Shown here piece after piece: positions 1 to 10,330 of a stretch of 64,000 nt of DNA; position 1 is the stretch's first letter; each line of letters opens with the position of its first letter. The DNA is taken from positions 1-64,000 of the forward strand of contig CAVQBA010000002.1 of assembly GCA_963710605.1 (NCBI GenBank), read 5' to 3'. The position numbers and the translations under genes were made by a program. The notes below the pieces were generated by a model. That model had not been told where the DNA came from and ran no database searches. It worked only from the letters and a program-made list of their open reading frames with translations. The DNA is from an uncultured cyanobacterium. Its GTDB lineage: Bacteria > Cyanobacteriota > Cyanobacteriia > Cyanobacteriales > Cyanobacteriaceae.

Positions 1-1161
1 ATTTTGAACAGATTAATCGTACAGTTTTTCTTGACTACCTATCAAAAGAGAAAAAAGTTACTAAATCCAAGTTAACTCCATTAAGAGATTTTTTCTTTGT
101 GGGTACAGTTAAGGGTTGGTTTGATATTGACCAAGATATTATTCGAGATGAAGACTATCCTAAACGTCGCCGAGGCAATCCAGATCCCCTATCACAAAAA
201 GTTACAGAGCAAATAGAAGCCAATTTACATATTTTACCAGACCCCATCGCTCGAATATATCTAATCTGCTATTTTGGAGCAATGCGTCCATCTGAACTAG
301 CTCAACTCAAACAGGATTGTTTAATACAAGAAGGACAATATTGGAAACTACGTTGGTACAGACCAAAAAATAAAGATTACCATGAAATACCTATTAGTAG
401 AACTATCGCCAAAGTTGTTCAAGAACAGCTAGATTATGTTAAAAATCTATGGGGGGATGAATATGATTATTTGTTCTGTCATTATCACGGTCTATCTTCA
501 ACAAAAGCATCTCAACCTAATCTAGTACCTGTTAAGAAGGTTGTACAAAGTAATGATTCACATCCATTAATGAAAAGTATAAGAACTCTAATTACTACTT
601 TAGACATCCGAGATGAAAATGGACAACTAGCAACCTTTATAAACAAAATATTACGTTCTACTCGCTTAACTAATCTTTTTGAACAAGGACATGATTTAGC
701 GGTAGTGAGTGCATGGGCAGGACATAAACATTTTGCTACCACTAGCACTTACTATACCAAAGTTAGTTGTGAACTCATTAATAAAGAAGCAGGACATATT
801 GAAAAAGCCTTAGTTAATGCAGAAGGTAAACAAGTACCTTATGAATCCTTCCCTAAATCGTTCTGGGATAATCCTACTGCTCATAAGTTAGAACTCTCTG
901 GAACACATATTAACACGCCCATTTATGGTTATTGTGGACTGGATTTAGACCAAGATTGTCATAAGTTCAGAGCTTGTTATACTTGCAATCATTTTGTCGC
1001 TACTCCCGATAAACTTGACCAATATATCAAAGTTAGAGATGAGCTAGAAAAAACAATCTACAGCTAATGCCAATGGGCAAGATGTTTTAGTCGAGCAGTT
1101 TGGCAGACAAGCCGACACCCTTAACAAGATTATTCAGTCATTACAACACGAGGTAGCATAA
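1..1161 (+). pseudogene. Tyrosine recombinase, Tn554 TnpB-like (5'-partial; frameshift near 1050)
   Basis: Frame is open from the window edge. Catalytic motifs: GAMRPSEL (R), LRST (R), WAGH (H), TTSTYYT (Y). C-terminal Cys cluster GYC..C..FRACYTC is typical of Tn554-type integrases. After an A-run frameshift at ~1048-1053 the reading continues (QSTANANGQDVLVEQFGRQ...) to TAA 1159-1161. Confidence 0.8.
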
Positions 1162-2010
1162 TGGCAGACTTTGATATTAGAGAACAACGTATTGAAACCC
1201 TTAAATCCACTCAGGAGAAAGAAAAAAAGAATCCCGTAATCGTGTTCATGAAGCAATAGAAAAGTTACTCAAAATCAATGCCAAGATTAACTTTGCCACT
1301 GTAGCCAGAGAAGCCCAAGTCAGTGTGAGTTATTTATATAAATATCCTGAGTTGAAGCAACGAGTGGCAGAACTTCGTAGTCAACAAAATTCTATGCCTG
1401 TTAAACCGCTCAATAAACCTAATTCTACCGCCCAAGGTAAAATCATCACGAAGTTACAAGAGCGACTCAAACGGGTAGAAAATGAAAACAAAGAACTAAA
1501 GAAAAAGAATGAAGCTCTTGCAGGACAAGTATATCGAGTCTATCAACTACAAGACCAAGTAGAAAGATTACAAAAAGAAAATGAACGACTACTTACTAAA
1601 GTTAAAGAACAAGAGATAGCAGAAAAAGTTATCCCCATTAGTCGTATGACTAAAGTTCCTCCTTTGACAAGTCCACCTCAAACTTCTACTGTTTCAATTG
1701 AAAAGGAGCTAAAAGAATTAGGTGTTAAACTTAATCCCACTTTAAAAAAAACTATCAAACAAGCAGAAGAGCACAAGTATTAGAAGAAATTGCCTCTAAG
1801 GAACAATTAGCAGATCCAAGGTTAGTAACGCAAGGGGGACGGTTAAACAAAGCGATTAAAGAAGGATGGAATCACCAATCATCTACACCTGAAGTTACCA
1901 AACCCGAACATCAACAAATAGTCAGTAAATCAACTCCTTCTGACGAAAAATTAATTAGCAACGATAGATTAAAAGCCCTTAGTAACTTATTCCGTAATGA
2001 AGACGATTAA
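1161..2010 (+). pseudogene. DUF6262 / TnpC-like coiled-coil protein (two frameshifts)
   Basis: ATG overlaps the recombinase stop (TAATG). Motif KINFATVAREAQVSVSYLYKY, then a coiled coil. Frameshifts near 1215-1225 and ~1775. The last frame (...QGGRLNKAIKEGW...) ends at TAA 2008-2010. Confidence 0.65.
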
Positions 2011-3317
2011 TCAAAATAAGCTCCTAGCAAATATAGAAGCCGAAGAAGAATTCTTGGGTACAGTTCGATTTGACCCAAAAATTATCGGTTTAATTGCATC
2101 ACAGCTTCCTGCCGATGCTTTTTCCCTTTCTGCTCATCAAAAGATTTATGAATTTGCTCTAGAAATATATCGTCAAAACAAACCGACTGATTTAACTACT
2201 ATCAGCACTTGGTTACAAGACCATAATCTTTTAGATTCTGTTGGTGGTACTCTCAAGTTAACTCAATTATTAGATTCTACAGTAACATCTAAAACAGCTC
2301 AACATTATGTTGAGTTAGTAATGAATAAGTATCAACGCCGTTTATTGCGACAAACAGGACAAGAAATAGTTGAACTAGCCAGTGATACTTCTGCCAATTT
2401 AGAAACAGTCTTTGATAGTAGCGAACAGAAGTTGTTTGATATAACTACTAAGAAAACAAGGGGCAAGATTTGACCCTAAATCTATTGGTGATAGTTTAAT
2501 TGAAGTCTTGGGTAAAATTAGCGATGGAGCAAGGAATGCCTATTCTACTGGACTGAGTAATCTTGACCAACTGATTGGCGGTTTGATAAAACAAGATTTG
2601 ATTGTGGTTGCAGGAAGACCACCTATGGGGAAAAGTTGGGAACTTGGTTGTTACTTTGCTAATTATATTGCTACCAAAGAACACAAACCAGTAGTTTTCT
2701 TTAGTGCGGAGATGAGTCACGAACAGTTGACTAAAAGATTTCTTTCAATGCACACAGGTATTGATTCTCATCGACTGATACACAATCAAATTTATGAAGA
2801 AGAATATGAGCTTTTAGTATCTTCGTTAGAGCAGGTGTCACAACTACCAATAATTATTGATGATACTCCTGCAAGTCAATTAACTCCTGCCAAAATGCGT
2901 TCTGTATTACGTGGCATACAGTTGCAAAAGGGAGAAATAGGTTTAGTCGTATTAGATTATATCCAAAAATTAGGGGATAGAAGTGCAGGAAATAGATTTC
3001 AAGCTATTGGTAAATATTCAGGAGCGTGTAAAGACATCGCTAAAATGTTTGATGTTCCTTTTATCGTTTTAGCCCAAATAAACCGAGGAGTTGAAGGGCA
3101 AAGCAATAAACGCCCTTCTATGGGTGATATTAAAGATTCGGGGGATATAGAGCAGGATATGGACTTAGGTTTACTTCTTTACCGAGATGAATACTATAAC
3201 TCAAATACAAAAGATACAGGGGTTATGGAGATAATTGTGGGTAAGAATAGAAATGGTTCAACTGGTACTTGTAAAGTCAATTTTGACCCATCTGTAGGAA
3301 ACTTTAAAGACATCTGA
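1997..3317 (+). pseudogene. dnaB: DnaB-like replicative helicase, split by a 1-nt frameshift near 2455
   Basis: N-terminal domain ORF 1997-2473 and C-terminal RecA-fold ORF 2508-3317. Motifs: AGRPPMGKS (Walker A), FSAEM, VLDYIQ, LAQINR, DSGDIEQD, KNRNG. Confidence 0.85.
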
Positions 3318-3368
3318 TAGAATAATTTTAGAAGTTAATTATTGTTATGTAAAATATACACTATATGA

Positions 3369-3817
3369 ATGTGCTTTAAATCATTGTTGTGTAAATTACT
3401 AGTATCAGATAACTTAGGCTACTCTAGTCTGATAGCAACGAGCCGAAATGAAATAATTGATAGACCTAAATTTTTGATTGCTCTACAAAGCAAGTTGACA
3501 TCACTGCAACGAGAGTTAAAGAATAAGGACAAAGGCTCACAAAACTGGAAAAAAACCTGTCGTAAAATAGCTTTACTACATGAAAAAATTCACCGAAAAA
3601 GAAAGCAGTATCATTATGAATTAAGTCATTATTTGTGTGGGCAGGCGAAAATAATTTTTATTGAGGATATTGTACCTAAAGCATGGGCGAAAGGGATGTT
3701 ACGTAAACATTCTTTAGACTTCGCTTTTGGTGCGTTCATACAAATATTAACTCAAGTGGCGAAAAAAACAGACGTATATCTTCTCAAAGTTGATAAAGAT
3801 TTTACGTCACAAACCTG
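3369..3817 (+). pseudogene. tnpB: IS200/IS605-family TnpB, 5' exon (N-terminally truncated)
   Basis: Sequence LGYSSLIATS (remnant of RuvC-I), KGSQNWKK, RuvC-II IFIEDI, and ...VDKDFTSQT, which ends at the intron 5' boundary. Confidence 0.8.
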
Positions 3818-5090
3818 GTGCGATTCGTTCAGTCTAAATAAGTAACACTTAGGGACGACTGGCTTTTGTTGAGTAACCTTAATCGGTAGAGTTCGCACTT
3901 TAAATCCTCAACGAAGGACAATTTAATAATCTTGTTGGTGAGAGTAAGTAACCTAGAAAACTCAAACCCAACCCTCCAGACATAGGAGTGAAAACACTTT
4001 CCCTACGGTAGAGAATGGTCATCAATCCGTAAAGCGGGAATGAATGGGTAAAGGTTAACTCAACCTTGAGTCAATGCCACCTTAGCAGGTTTCTATGGAT
4101 AGGAATACAAAGGTTGTGTCAGAACCGTCTAGAGTGAAAACCAGTGAAATAAGGTTGATACACTGGGAGTACCAAAAGGTCAAAAACTAAGGGTATCAAA
4201 AAAGTCAGGTTTTAATTTGATATATGTCACCCGAAATAAGGCGGAGAATAACCATCCTAAAGAAACAAAACAAAGATTATTAGAAACGAAGTAACCCATT
4301 TATTACTCTCCTGAACTTCAGGAGCAGTCAACCAAGACGCAAAATCTGAATTTTTCAGGTAATTAATGGGAAAGATTGGATTAGAAGCAAACGCTCTATT
4401 GTAACGATAGAGATAAGCTGACGAATCCACGGTAATACGGAATATAAAGCTATGAGTAGCAATGAATAAGTTATGAACACGGAATTAAAACCGATGTATG
4501 AATGGAAAGACACCAATTGGCGTAAAGTCGAGAGATGTGCTTTTAAGTTGCAAAAAAGGATTTATAAAGCGTCACAGCGTGGGGATGTCAAGACAGTTCA
4601 CAGACTACAGAGGTTATTAACTAATAGTTGGTATGCAAAGCTAATATCGGTGCGTAGAGTTACTCAGGATAATCAAGGGAAGAAAACAGCAGGAGTGGAT
4701 GGAGTAAAATCTCTGACCCCAAAGAAACGTTTCCTCTTGACAAAAGAACTTAAACTGAGTACAAAGGTCAATCCAACCAGAAGAATCTGGATTCCAAAGA
4801 AAGGAAGGGATGAAAAAAGACCTTTGGGAATACCTACCATGTATGACCGAGCTTTGCAAGGGCTTGTAAAAATGGCAATTGAGCCAGAATGGGAAGCCCT
4901 ATTTGAACCTAATTCATACGGTTTCCGACCAGCTAGAAGTTGTCATGATGCTATAAGTGCTATATTCAGCCAAATTAGACTTAAATCAAAATATGTTTTG
5001 GATGCAGATATAGCAAAGTGCTTTGACAAAATAAATCACAAAAAACTACTAGATAAAGTCAATAGCTATCCAGTCTTAAGAAGACAGATA

Positions 5091-6212
5091 AGTAGCTCCA
5101 CTTAATTAAAAGTAAAACGTTCGACTTCAAATCCTGCTTGTTTTCCTCTATTATTCATTCCATTGATTATTTCTTCAACTAACTCACATTCATCTTCAAA
5201 TACTCTTGCCCTTAATTCATCCCTTTTTAAATGTAGCCATTGATCTTCCATCTTATTCATCTGTGGATGATAACTTGCCTGATAAAAGATTAGTAATCCT
5301 TGTTTCTCCCAGTAACTATAACGTTGTCTCACTTTCTGTGATTTATGTATTGAAGCATTATCATTGACTATGACTGTTAATTTTCCTGTTTCAAATAATC
5401 TCTTTGTTGCTTTTAAGGCTTGAGCATCTAAACATTCTATATACCTTGAGCTGTTCAAAGTCGTTGCTATTAGTCCGTATTCGGGGTTTTTATCTTGCTC
5501 CCATAATCCCATGATGTTTATTCTTCTTCCTTTTCTTCGTTTTTGATGTATTATTTTTTGTTCTCCTTTTTTTCCATAACTATACACCAACGGGCTTTCT
5601 GGATATACTCCAGACTCATCCAAATACTTTAAGGTGATTCAAACCTATTTGAGCCCATTTTTTAAGCATTTCTAAATCTTTCTTTTTTGCCTCTATTTCT
5701 TTGAGATTAATTATTTCAGGTGGTTTTCTTCTGATTCTTTTCCAACGCCAGTTTTTTTTTTAGTATTCTTCTAACTTGCTCAGAACCTAACTCTACTCCT
5801 GCTTCTTGCTTTAACTTTTGAGCCAATTGTTTTGCTGTATAACTTTTTTGTTCCCAAAGGCATTTTTCTATAGTTTGCCAATCTTGTGGAGTCCATTTTC
5901 TTTTTCTTCCAACTCTTTTTTCATCCCATAATCCAGCTAGTCCTTTTTCTTCCCATCTATGTATTGCTTGTCTAACCATCTTTGCTCCGCATTTTAAGTA
6001 ATCTTTGATTTCATTAACTGTTTTTCCCCTATTATTTAACCTCAGAGCAGTAGCTCTTTGTTTTGTTCTTTTTGGTACGCTATTTGCAAGAGATAACTCT
6101 TCAAGAGTTTTGTCTTCACTTTGTGATAGTTTTACTTGTAAAAAACTGGGCATTATTTCTTTTCCCATAATTATCCTGATTTTTTATTTTACTTTATTTA
6201 TGTGGAGCTACT
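5091..6212 (-). mobile_element. IS630-family insertion sequence
   Basis: Terminal inverted repeats AGTAGCTCCACTTAATTAAAAGTAAAA / TTTTACTTTATTTATGTGGAGCTACT, flanked by TA on both sides (5089-5090, 6213-6214). Confidence 0.9.
5102..6168 (-). CDS. IS630 transposase (HTH ORF 5716-6168 plus DDE ORF 5102-5623; A10 slippery site, one extra frameshift near 5640)
   Basis: DESG, NDNASIH and YHPQMNKMED (D-D-E) motifs. An A-run at 5752-5761 links the frames. An additional +1 base lies before ITLKYLDESG. Confidence 0.85.
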
Positions 6213-7218
6213 TAATAAGGTATGCAGATGACTTTGTAATCATGCACGAAGATATAAATGTGGTTATAAAATGTAAAGAAGTGATTAGCACATGGTTAAA
6301 AAATCTAGGATTAGAACTAAAACCGAGTAAAACAAAAATCGTACATACTCTGAATCAATATCAAGGACAAAAACCTGGATTCGATTTCTTAGGGTTCAAT
6401 ATACGTCAATTCAAAGCGGGAAAATATAAATCTGGAAAAAACACTAATGGAAAGATTTTGGGATTCTCTACCATAATCAGACCTTCAAAGGAAAGCCAGA
6501 AAGACCATTACAATAAAATAAAAGAGGTAATTAATAAGCATAAAGCTAAACCGCAAAATATACTTATTAGAAACCTGAACCCCATAATAAAAGGATGGTG
6601 TAACTATTTTTCCGTTGGATGCCCATCGAAAACATTCTACAGAATGGATTATACAATCTATTGGAAACTACAAAGATGGGCAAGAAGAAGACACCCAAAT
6701 AAGGGTAAGTATTGGATTTCCAAAAAATATTTTAATAGTATTGGAAACAGAAATTGGGTGTTCTCGACAAGAGATGATAAAGCGAGTTTTAAGTTGCTAG
6801 AATACGGTTCAATCAAGACCAGAAAGTACATTAAAGTAAAAGGTGAAGCATCACCATTTGATGGAAATCTTACCTACTGGAGTACAAGAATGGGAAAACA
6901 CCCCCAGATGCCTAAGCGAACAGCATCATTGTTAAAAAAAACAAAAAGGGATGTGTAACCACTGTGGATTGTACTTAAAAGATGGAGACATTATAGAGCT
7001 AGACCATATTATACCCAAATCCAAAGGAGGAAAGGATAGCTATGAAAACTGGCAGTTACTTCATCGACATTGCCATGATGTAAAAACTAAGGATGACGGA
7101 AGTCTAGAAAGAAATCCGATTATAATACCTGATAAATATTATTAGGAGAATGACATTCTTGTGTCGTACTAATGACAATAGCCGTTTTACTGAGGAGCGG
7201 TGTGACGTGAAAATGTCA

Positions 7219-9598
7219 GTGCGATTCGTTCTAGCAAAAGTCTAAAGCTAATAAGCTCAAGCGTAAGCTAGGCAAGGTTAATCATTCATTTGAACCTTGA
7301 CAACTCAATATCCATGTAGGTGAGAATCCTACCCTCTCATGCTAAGAGTGAAAGCATAACCCACATTGAATTGGCGTTTGGTAAGTCATACGATGAAGCT
7401 GGGTTAAATGGTGGTAACTGATAGCCAAAATTGGAATCCCACCTAGCACAGTAGTCATGGGTACGAAAGGAATCTTCGTAATAATCATCGTTATCTCGAA
7501 ACAGCTAAATGGCTGATAAGCTGTAACCAAAAGGTATTAGTCTAACGTACTGGCAATATTGACGGCTTGAACCAGATAGTATTACATAGACTCGGTGAAG
7601 AGAAGAACTCTAAAACTACATAGTATGGATATTGGGAACGAAATAACCCCAAAAAGACTCTCAACATTATTGTTGAGTAGTAACCAGCGTAAGTCTGATG
7701 GGGAAGGATTGTGTAAGAAGCGAAAGTCTAATTGTAATGATTAGAATATGCCCACGTACACACTTTGATTAGTAAAGAATAGTCCAAGTAGAATTAAAAG
7801 ACATGAACGTAAAGTATGTATGGAACAATTGGAACGAAATCGACTGGAAAGTCGTAGAAATTTCAGTGTTTAAAATTCAAAAACGAATATTCCGAGCAAG
7901 TCGTAGTGGTGATAAACAAGCAGTTCACAAATTACAAAGACTACTCACTAACTCTTTCTATAGCCGTTTATTAGCGGTCAGAAAGGTATCTCAAGATAAT
8001 CAAGGCAAGAAAACAGCAGGAGTTGATGGAATAAAACATCTAACCCCTAAACAGCGTCTTGAAATGGTCAATAATTTAAAAATAAGTGGTAAATCTAAAC
8101 CAACTCGCAGAGTGTGGATGCCAAAACCCAACGGAGAAAAAAGACCACTTGGAATACCGACTATATATGAAAGAGCAAAACAATGTCTAATTAAACTAGC
8201 TCTAGAACCTGAATGGGAGGCTACTTTTGAGAATAACAGCTACGGTTTTCGTCCAGCAATGTCAGCACACGACGCTATTGAGGCAATATTTAAAACCATT
8301 AAACAAAAGCCAAAATACGTACTAGATGCGGATATAGCAAAGTGCTTCGATAAAATAGACCATCAAAAACTACTTCAGAAAATGGAAACATATCCAAAAT
8401 TAAGAAGACAAATAAAAGCATGGCTAAAAAGCGGAGTAATAGACGGAAAATCTTGGTATCCAACAGATGAAGGCACACCACAAGGAGGAGTGGTGTCACC
8501 ATTATTAGCAAATATAGCTCTTCACGGTATGGAAGACGAAATCAAAAGATACGCTAGAACATTAAAAGGAAATAAATCTAAAAATGAATCGTCACTGAGT
8601 TTAATCAGATATGCTGACGATTTTGTTATCCTACATTCAAAAAAAGAAGTAATTCTTGAATGTAAACAAATAATAGAAAGATGGCTTCAAGACATCGGAT
8701 TGGAACTGAAACCGAGTAAAACAAAAATCACACACACCCTCAATCAAGTAGAAGGTAATGTGGGGTTTGATTTCTTGGGATTTAATATTAGACAATATCC
8801 CGTTGGAAAACATCATAGTAGTAAATCCACTCACTCAGAAATACTTGGATTTAAAACAATCATAAAGCCGTCAAAGGATAAAGTTAAACTACATACGCAA
8901 AAAATTGCAGAAGTAATTAAGAAACATAGAGCTAGTCAACAAATTGTCCTAATTAAAGAGTTAAATCCAATCATTAAAGGATGGTCGAATTATTACAGCA
9001 CAGTTTGTAGTAAGGATACATATTCTAAATGTGATTCTATACTATACTCACAATTAAAAAGATGGGCAGAGAGAAGACACCCAAATAAATCAAAACACTG
9101 GGTTGCTAAAAAATATTGGCACTCAAGGGGTTTAAGAAACTGGGTCTCTTCATGAGGAAGGGGAAATATATAGCGAATTAAAAACTCACTCACAGACCCC
9201 TATCAAAAGGCATATAAAAGTAAGGAAGAACTACAGCATTTTTAATGGTGAGATAGTTTACTCGAGTAGTAGATTAGGAAAGCATCCCGAAATGTCTGAA
9301 CTAATGGCAAAATTGCTAAAAAGACAAAAACAAAGGTGTAATCATTGTGAACTGTTACTCATGAGAAGAGAATTATTAGAAATTGACCATATAATCCCTG
9401 TATCAAAAGGAGGAAGATACAGTTTTCAAGAATTTACAAATTCTCCACAGACATTGCCACGACACTAAGACAACCACTGATGGAAGTCTCACTTGTATTC
9501 AAGACAAGAAACTAATTAGAGAGGAGCGAGGTGAGGGGAAACTTTCATGCCTCGTTTTGAAGACGAGTCAGAATGGTGACGTTCTGGCTTAGTTTAAC
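7219..9598 (+). mobile_element. Group II intron 2 (inner), inserted in domain V of intron 1
   Basis: Starts GTGCGATTCGTT at 7219. It has its own domain V (GAGCGAGGTGAGGGGAAACTTTCATGCCTCGTTT, ~9524-9557), domain VI, and a 3' end ..GTTTAAC at 9598. Confidence 0.92.
7803..9520 (+). pseudogene. Intron-encoded RT/maturase of intron 2 (RT and X intact to 9155; HNH region frameshifted)
   Basis: 450-aa ORF with GTPQGGVVSPLLAN and YADD. Out-of-frame remnants EIDHIIPVSKGG and RHCHDTK lie downstream. Confidence 0.9.
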
Positions 9599-9649
9599 TG
9601 CACCGTTTTGGAGAGCAGTAGGTGGGGTGACTCACTTACTGACTTTAAT

Positions 9650-9878
9650 CCCAAATTGTAATACAATTACTGGTAAAAAAGACTTGAAAGAGCGAGTTCA
9701 TAGTTGTTCTGAATGTGGTTTTACGGCAAATAGAGATGTAGCCGTATCGATGATTGTAGAGCAACGAGGTCTCCTAGCCGTTGGACAAACGGTGTCGCAG
9801 TCTGTGGAGGATAGTGGTATCGGGGTTGTTGAGAAATCGACAACTAGAACCACCCGAAAAAGCAGAAAATCTAAATAG
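9650..9878 (+). pseudogene. tnpB: IS605-family TnpB, 3' exon
   Basis: PNC...HSCSECGFTANRDVA (zinc finger and RuvC-III), in frame with the 5' exon after splicing. Confidence 0.85.
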
Positions 9879-9930
9879 CGATGTTTGGAAGCCCATGTCT
9901 GTACTGTAAGTCAGCGTGGAAAGATGTCAC
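9780..9930 (+). ncRNA. IS605 right end / putative omegaRNA scaffold region
   Basis: Overlaps the tnpB 3' end and terminates GATGTCAC (TCAC-type right end). The RNA extent is inferred from TnpB family knowledge. Confidence 0.5.
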
Positions 9931-9966
9931 TACGATAATTAATCAATAATTTAAAATCAAAATACT

Positions 9967-10256: not shown

Positions 10257-10330
10257 CGGGCGTGAAGGGACTCGAACCCCCGACCTGCTGATTCGTAGTC
10301 AGCCGCTCTAATCCACTAAGCTACACACCC
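10257..10330 (-). tRNA. tRNA-Arg(ACG)
   Basis: GGGTGTGTAGCTTAGTGGATTAGAGCGGCTGACTACGAATCAGCAGGTCGGGGGTTCGAGTCCCTTCACGCCCG folds as a cloverleaf with anticodon ACG. CCA is not encoded. Confidence 0.95.

Follow-up and report, generated by a model that had tools for sequence, protein, structure and literature searches.

How did a transposon gene come to be spread over many kilobases of a cyanobacterial genome, what interrupts it, and can the order of the interruptions still be read? This question is raised by a tnpB gene near the start of contig CAVQBA010000002.1 of an uncultured cyanobacterium, of which we analyzed the first 64,000 nucleotides (nt) (G000:C2:1-64000), hereafter called the window. 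A preliminary description of this DNA had depicted positions 3369-9930 as a four-layer nest, in which tnpB contains a group II intron (intron 1) that in turn contains an IS630-family insertion sequence (IS) and a second group II intron (intron 2). Our analysis indicates that this containment is correct, but the nest is three levels deep and made of four elements, and the tnpB gene is additionally broken upstream, at ~3411, by a fifth element of 6.9 kb. Overall, we put at about 0.78 the probability that a tnpB-only IS of ~1.35 kb was enlarged to ~14 kb as other mobile elements invaded it one after another, and that what remains today is a fossil.

The assembly comprises 3.93 Mb with 33% G+C in 7 contigs and has a completeness of 84.9%. 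Protein domains were assigned with Pfam, domain V of group II introns with Rfam covariance models, and reverse transcriptase (RT)-maturases with NCBIfam (TIGR04416). The cut-offs were 40 bits for RF00029, 30.5 for OrfB_IS605, 26.3 for TNB and 300 bits for TIGR04416. Homologs were searched in 41 genomes (the source genome and 40 relatives), 27 of which held some match. In what follows C1, C2, C5 and C6 are contigs of the same assembly, G followed by a number denotes a related genome, and L followed by a number denotes an extracted locus.

The exon junction of the interrupted gene can be placed to the base. It had been proposed that joining position 3817 to position 9650 restores the TnpB zinc finger, and that an intron-free tnpB with another junction would speak against this. 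The joined frame reads S-Q-T-C|P-N-C and stays open until the stop codon at 9876-9878, and all seven uninterrupted tnpB homologs that were fetched are colinear with it and contiguous exactly at the 3817|9650 point, which bears out the proposal at single-base resolution. One of the seven is in the same genome (C6:789529-788294) and six come from G010 (twice), G011, G014, G015 and G018; an eighth, G015:C83, is contiguous as judged by its alignment coordinates (298|299), its sequence not having been fetched. The C6 copy is an intact, uninterrupted paralog of 411 amino acids (aa) with 76% DNA identity. The Pfam profile Cas12f1-like_TNB also breaks at the junction, with positions 1-31 in the 5' piece and the remainder in the 3' piece; the half-matches score 20.5 and 22.1 bits, both under the cut-off as the domain is halved. 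The RuvC core was recognized in the 5' window piece by OrfB_IS605 at 53 bits. The gene therefore has the RuvC core and the C-terminal zinc-finger TNB domain of an IS200/IS605 TnpB, but it is not one continuous gene.

In fact, tnpB is split into three parts (C5:327757 to ~328365, window 3411-3817 and window 9650-9878), all of which remain open reading frames (ORFs). The window carries the gene only from ~codon 205 to its end, and the first ~205 codons are on contig C5. The protein of the middle piece is 69.8% identical to the C6 paralog over aa 204-342, and that of the last piece is 74% identical over aa 337-394; at the DNA level the last piece is 81-83% identical to the closest of the listed relatives' copies (G010, G015, G018). 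Although the tnpB region had been drawn from 3369, DNA homology to the relatives' tnpB begins at query base 44-46, i.e., window 3412-3414. Positions 3369-3410 are the right end of another mobile element, and the assignment to tnpB holds from 3411 onward. The ORF that starts with the ATG at 3369 was accordingly rejected as spurious. Since the tnpB copies share homology from ~15 nt before the ATG on C5 through window 9919-9932, the host is a tnpB-only IS of ~1.35 kb, of the IS200/IS605 family. The coordinates of all features are collected in the table.

Table. Features of the interrupted tnpB locus; coordinates refer to the window.
Feature	Coordinates	Strand	Description
6.9-kb element, right part	1..3410	+	three tyrosine recombinases, DUF6262 protein, DnaB-like helicase; left part at C5:328357-332074
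tnpB middle piece	3411..3817	+	~codons 205-342, RuvC-II region to first zinc-finger Cys
Intron 1	3818..9649	+	5,832 nt including two passengers; starts GTGCG, ends ...TTTAAT
EBS2 of intron 1	4134..4137	+	GTGA, pairs with exon bases -11 to -8 (TCAC)
EBS1 of intron 1	4206..4212	+	CAGGTTT in hairpin loop, 7/7 pairing with last seven exon bases
Intron-1 protein, N-terminal part	4473..5090	+	RVT_N 116 bits; RVT_1 profile positions 1-97 of 205 (Pfam)
IS630-family element	5091..6212	-	1,122 bp; transposase in two ORFs, 5716-6168 and 5102-5623
Intron-1 protein, C-terminal part	6213..7166	+	end of RVT_1, maturase GIIM, HNH (Pfam); frameshift near 6936-6946
Domain V of intron 1, 5' part	7195..7218	+	5' strand, GAAA loop, upper 3' strand, first bulge nucleotide
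Intron 2	7219..9598	+	2,380 nt; starts GTGCG, ends ...TTTAAC; between both bulge nucleotides of intron-1 domain V
EBS1 of intron 2	7560..7564	+	TGACG, pairs over 5 bp (one G-U) with TGTCA, the final five bases ahead of the intron
Intron 1, remainder	9599..9649	+	domain V remainder at 9599-9608 (second bulge nucleotide, lower 3' strand), domain VI, 3' end
tnpB last piece	9650..9878	+	zinc finger, RuvC-III, C-terminal tail, stop; TNB profile positions 32-57
tnpB-only insertion sequence, right end	9879..9932	+	homology to six relatives' copies ends at 9919-9932; putative guide-RNA scaffold end

The claim that the 5.8 kb between 3817 and 9650 are a single group II intron was likewise borne out, by its GTGCG start, the pairing of its exon-binding sites (EBS), the two halves of its domain V and its protein domains. 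Relatives of the intron-1 family are 67-73% identical to it. Its EBS1 and EBS2 pair with the corresponding intron-binding sites (IBS1 and IBS2) of the tnpB exon over 7 bp and 4 bp, and both are supported by covariation across five family members: the homologous EBS1 loops of L019, L020 and the intron at C5:26622 pair over 5 bp with their own exons, and the EBS2 position pairs over 5 bp in these same three introns and over 4 bp in L022 and the window. A second CAGGTTT, at intron position 269, was considered as EBS1 and rejected because that block is conserved across the family; the loop at position 389 is variable and covaries with the exons. The double pairing at the tnpB site is the mark of retro-insertion via reverse splicing.

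Domain V of intron 1 was found in two halves. When 7219-9598 is removed in silico, 7195-7218 and 9599-9608 form a hairpin of 34 nt that has a GAAA loop and a bulge of two nucleotides and is shaped like domain V of intron 2 (-17.1 kcal/mol for the refolded 36-nt stretch), followed by domain VI and a 3' end in ...AAT. Together with the GTGCG start, these features agree with those that define a group II intron (5' GUGYG, AGC triad and 2-nt bulge in domain V, domain VI, 3' AY). The Rfam scan returned no RF00029 match for the domain V of intron 1 in the window because the hairpin is split, and it gave a weak partial match to RF04357 at 7192-7234. In 4/4 intron-1 relatives (L019 and L020, in G020; L021, in G033; L022, in G022) domain V is uninterrupted at exactly that base, and at three of these four loci the uninterrupted homologs score 55-57 bits with RF00029. 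The plastid domain-V model RF04357 gives 57-59 bits on the intron-1 relatives and 48.8 bits on intron 2, the sole hint at the class of these introns, which may be chloroplast-like. The protein fragments of intron 1 together carry the RT, maturase and endonuclease domains, and their gene is broken by the IS630, by a loss of 60-70 codons and by a frameshift. Comparison with the intact proteins of relatives (597-602 aa) by tblastn placed the frame change at an A8 run near 6940.

Other members of the intron-1 family also occupy tnpB genes. The closest relative, L021 (G033:C132:2300-7600), sits in tnpB after A-A-V-N near the last RuvC motif and is itself a twintron, one intron nested inside another, with an extra domain V match at 2522-2600 within its domain I. 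L020 and L022 are in tnpB at the same codon (D-R-D|V, last RuvC motif), and L022 is an ORF-less derivative of ~560 nt.

The sequence that separates the two halves of domain V is a second group II intron. It begins with GTGCG at 7219, its domain V and VI region at 9522-9598 scores 50.6 bits with RF00029, and its ORF at 7803-9155 (450 aa) reaches 339.8 bits with the RT-maturase model TIGR04416. It is colinear with full-length relatives of 67-70% identity in eight genomes of the same family, where these relatives are mostly multicopy. The EBS1 loop is supported by covariation, with 5/9 family members pairing over at least 6 bp with their own 5' flank; for EBS2 of this intron no convincing candidate was found. 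The protein gene shows two frame changes relative to intact relatives of ~600 aa, near 9152-9178 and 9422-9465, which fall before and within the HNH part. Intron 2 had been called complete; this is right for the RNA, given its colinearity with full-length relatives, but not for the protein gene with its two frameshifts. Domain V is the catalytic centre of group II introns, and its bulge is essential for catalysis. The inner intron interrupts precisely this bulge of the outer ribozyme, as is expected of a twintron that is obliged to splice from the inside out. Among the relatives of intron 2, L011 (G018:C129:632-6031) lies inside a sibling intron from its own family, ~90 nt in, and L007 (G013:C274) interrupts the N-terminal part of a tnpB-like gene.

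The same arrangement left traces elsewhere in the genome, which holds 12 RF00029 matches at E <= 1, 11 of them over the cut-off. A second, decayed twintron lies at C5:26622-29770. Its outer intron, starting at C5:26622, is 65% identical to intron 1 and sits in the RT motif of another intron (D-A-D-I-A-K-C-F-D|). Within it, C5:29412-29621 (210 nt) and C5:29613-29713 (101 nt) are 94% and 100% identical to intron 2, respectively, and are fused through internal deletions. The intron-2 remnant ends at the same domain-V position (...TTTAAC|CGTAACG...), and identity drops beyond the last base of the intron. Because a degraded copy of intron 2 occupies the same domain-V position in a diverged outer intron, the inner-intron lineage probably homes to this site. 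The surrounding stretch, C5:11000-30000, contains at least six group II intron copies or fragments in 20 kb, apparently nested and rearranged, and accounts for 5/12 of the RF00029 matches.

A bolder version would be that the inner intron represents a lineage whose specific homing target is the catalytic domain-V bulge in another family of introns; this lineage would be a parasite's parasite that locks its host ribozyme. We regard this as doubtful, with the odds clearly against it. If it were true, the outer intron and its host gene would be expressed only while the inner intron stays splicing-competent, and the inner lineage may still be active here, having struck two diverged outer introns. 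That domain-V targeting is general to the intron-2 family was rejected, since the 5' flanks of seven relatives (L006-L012) are unrelated sites. Among these sites is one at another spot in a tnpB, and that of L011 is in domain I of its sibling; both flanks were compared for four of the relatives.

The other passenger of intron 1 is an IS630-family element. On the minus strand Pfam detected DDE_3 (62 bits) and HTH_32 (53 bits), and the ends form inverted repeats (5089-5110 and 6193-6214) that match at 20/22 positions with TA at both sides, as expected of a target duplication. The division of the transposase into two ORFs may reflect a programmed frameshift, decay or a sequencing error. No further IS630 copy was found in the assembly beyond 5091-6212. 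The presence of this element inside intron 1 agrees with what had been described, but a simple insertion does not account for it. Relatives hold ~208 nt of RT sequence between the points that flank the IS630, and these are gone in the window; correspondingly, tblastn with the intact proteins of relatives showed 60-70 RT codons missing at the site, with aa 207-276 absent. The element thus replaces ~208 nt of the intron-1 RT gene.

The fifth element breaks tnpB outside the nest. Window 1-3410 matches C1:3414-1 at 98.3% identity, and C5:328357-332074 matches C1:6913-3195 at 99.8%; C5 and C2 share 220 nt, at the end of the former and the start of the latter. Just left of the repeat, C5:327757-328419 encodes the first 222 TnpB residues, which, like the window pieces, resemble the C6 paralog (69% identity). 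Pfam recognized Phage_integrase three times, DUF6262 and DnaB/DnaB_C, and the three tyrosine recombinases measure 361, 496 and 672 aa. The element cuts tnpB at the first RuvC motif (G-V-D-L-G-Y-T|), and the C1 copy (C1:1-6913, L002) adjoins a different tnpB at the same motif (G-L-D-M-G-Y-T|); both copies in the genome (2/2) therefore interrupt a tnpB at G-x-D-x-G-Y-T|, each in a different gene. The right end is known from a single instance, as the C1 copy stops at a contig end. Homologs of the first recombinase were present in 18/151 genomes of the order at E <= 1e-40. In the relatives the left end of the element is conserved (ATACAA...AACAACAACAACAA) and adjoins other conserved-motif codons, namely those of DNA-methylase motif I, a P-loop, a helicase motif and an intron maturase gene. 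Specificity for tnpB was rejected on these grounds, and since the relatives' left ends adjoin other genes, the element is predicted to prefer a short GGTTAT-like sequence, not tnpB as such.

No curated family for the recombinases of this element reached its cut-off; the only matches were generic Phage_integrase and sub-threshold hits to Xer and to the NCBIfam gamma-mobile-trio models GmtY and VPA1267. We presume a likeness to the Tn554-type, multi-tyrosine-recombinase elements, which does not establish membership. Like these, the 6.9-kb element has several tyrosine recombinases in a row and a small DUF6262-type protein, and its insertions share one orientation and fall at a preferred short sequence; unlike these, it has recombinases of the three sizes given above together with a DnaB-like helicase. 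The helicase gene is broken at different places in the two copies (window 1997-2473 and 2508-3317; L002 94-366 and 470-1411), and the differences are mostly 1-nt indels and clustered substitutions that could be decay or long-read consensus errors. A relative of the element was also seen at L034 (G021:C290), where it interrupts the gene of a group II intron protein within the maturase (X) domain.

How much of the history can be read from this arrangement? The preliminary description had held that the nesting gives the order of insertion. This holds for the succession tnpB, intron 1, intron 2, since ribozyme-driven movement is closed to an outer intron with a split domain V; it does not hold for the arrivals of the IS630 and of the 6.9-kb element. 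The time of the IS630 is not fixed because an intron with an IS in its domain-IV ORF may still be mobilized in trans, and the nesting orders neither the IS630 relative to intron 2 nor the 6.9-kb element relative to any of the others. In the sequence of events that we propose, intron 1 would have retro-inserted into tnpB by reverse splicing at a DNA site matching its EBS1 and EBS2, and intron 2 would have entered domain V after intron 1 was already seated in tnpB. The outer intron would then splice only once the inner one is out, because domain V exists only after the inner intron has been removed. Any residual splicing could be helped by the open 450-aa RT-maturase ORF of the inner intron or by other copies in the genome. 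The locus would yield no working TnpB, because the 6.9-kb DNA element is not removable by RNA splicing, and at most splicing at the RNA level would persist. The outer intron's protein is destroyed, and that of the inner intron carries two frameshifts. The loss of the outer protein and the additional break of tnpB by a DNA element lead us to read the locus as a fossil.

Several points weigh against parts of this reading. Splicing, its order and present activity are deduced from DNA. The adjacency of C5 and C2 is based on the 220-nt overlap and the colinear C1 copy and is not spanned by a single continuous contig. Repeats in this assembly are near-identical yet rich in 1-nt indels; between the two copies of the 6.9-kb element, 18 small indels and 37 substitutions were counted. 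Because these copies differ by so many small indels, sequencing errors may underlie the 1-nt frameshifts of the intron proteins and the IS630 transposase, in which case the protein of the inner intron could be intact. With regard to homing, the inner intron pairs with the domain-V site over only 5 bp, one of them G-U, which is weak for a dedicated homing site, and the 5' junction of the C5 copy is deleted, so that the 3' junction alone is shared. The junction pattern was found in no other genome when 401 genomes of the order were searched, the exact match being confined to the two sites of this genome. Two matches with one mismatch (G022, G399) were dismissed as chance, having no adjacent domain V, and a reversed-pattern control matched ~12 genomes.

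One rival explanation is that the nest came pre-formed, the outer intron with its IS630 or else the entire twintron having been brought in through DNA recombination or gene conversion between intron copies, so that depth in the nest would not equal order of insertion. Intron recombination does occur here, as the C5 stretches 94-100% identical to intron 2 and fused by internal deletions attest, and the rearranged, nested intron cluster at C5:11-30 kb points in the same direction. Moreover, an IS in the ORF region need not stop trans-driven mobility of the outer intron, as may be deduced from the part of the work on TeI4g::ISEL2f considered here (PMC2882425). However, EBS1 and EBS2 of the outer intron match this very tnpB site, as expected if it had retro-inserted there itself, the assembly offers no other copy of intron 1 or of the IS630 as a donor, and the split domain V would bar ribozyme-driven movement of the twintron as a unit. 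We consider such a history improbable.

Successive invasion with a fossil as its outcome must also be set against a locus that is still alive, in which both introns splice in order, as in the Tery_4732 twintron of Trichodesmium, so that a functional 3' message of tnpB or its guide RNA is regained, the nest being tolerated rather than dead. The three open tnpB pieces would suit such a locus, as would the RNA hallmarks that both introns keep intact (GTGCG, domains V and VI, EBS1), the 450-aa ORF retained by the inner intron, the other intron copies in the genome and frameshifts that might be sequencing errors. Against this stand the cut by the 6.9-kb DNA element, which is beyond the reach of splicing, and the outer intron's protein gene, which bears an IS and is without 60-70 RT codons; we give a living twintron slightly less credence still than arrival as a composite. 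Finally, the assembler could have produced the nest by joining repeated intron sequences into a chimera. The assembly is in 7 contigs and incomplete, contig ends overlap repeats, and small indels distinguish repeats that are otherwise near-identical. However, intron 1, intron 2 and the IS630 are each single-copy in the assembly, save for the 210-nt and 101-nt pieces on C5, and the junctions are biologically exact (exon colinearity, domain-V halves, TA-flanked inverted repeats), unlike chimeric joins. An artefact is therefore very improbable, and growth of a small IS by successive invasion is the history that we retain.

The known systems supply a precedent for every layer. In Thermosynechococcus elongatus, the sections of Mohr, Ghanem and Lambowitz (2010, PMC2882425) that bear on nesting describe introns within introns (TeI3 in TeI4 twintrons) and within the IS200-family ISEL1, as well as an intron ORF into which an IS has inserted (TeI4g::ISEL2f); in the window, a single locus combines the three kinds of event. 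The same sections take identical or near-identical inner introns in diverged outer introns as a sign of recent independent insertions, and the situation here is similar, with inner copies 94-100% identical in outer introns that are 65% identical. In contrast, the inner introns of Thermosynechococcus, as described there, lie at the start of the ORF in domain IV and do not disable the outer ribozyme, whereas here the domain-V bulge is split (PMC2882425). Trichodesmium erythraeum Tery_4732 contains a ~5.4 kb group II twintron in a protein-coding gene, for which the part of Pfreundt and Hess (2015, PMC4649490) drawn on here reports sequential splicing in vivo; as in the window, two distantly related introns each have their own protein gene. 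That inner intron is, however, in domain I and its host gene is conserved and functional; ours is a transposon gene that is broken elsewhere too, and the twintron is known from DNA alone (PMC4649490).

The founding case of an intron inside the domain V of another is psbF of the Euglena gracilis chloroplast (Copertino and Hallick 1991, as described in a portion of PMC8393795). That twintron is organellar, consists of reduced, protein-less introns and interrupts an essential gene, in all of which it differs from the present one (PMC8393795). The 'zombie' twintrons of plant mitochondria are degenerating nested introns, including a hypermobile intron that invades its relatives (Zumkeller, Gerke and Knoop 2020, PMC7049729). 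According to the pertinent part of that paper, the inner intron there lies in dispensable parts (domain IV) and the outer one splices regardless, which is impossible with a split domain V (PMC7049729). A literature search for group II introns, TnpB and IS605 gave no report of group II introns inside tnpB among the matches listed, and absence is not claimed. The locus is a clean, unusually complete example of a known arrangement, each layer of which has a published precedent, and current understanding is unchanged by it.

What the locus offers is a base-by-base view of how mobile elements pile up in a cyanobacterial genome, here on a transposon gene of ~1.35 kb. A bacterial twintron that splits the domain-V bulge, at two loci, is a natural system for the study of enforced splicing order and of homing of introns on introns, and the cutting of the first RuvC motif of two tnpB genes by both copies of the tyrosine-recombinase element is possibly worth a test at the bench.

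The region also carries a warning for annotation. The ORF track had been described as shattered into more than ten ORFs, and this is true: 21 ORFs of at least 50 aa overlap 3369-9930, and they resolve into four elements. Pfam sorts them into two TnpB pieces, two sets of group II intron protein domains (RVT_N, RVT_1, GIIM, HNH) and a minus-strand IS630-type transposase. Beyond the nest, ~330 nt past the right end of the tnpB insertion sequence, a tRNA gene was found on the minus strand at 10257-10330 (RF00005, 64.9 bits).

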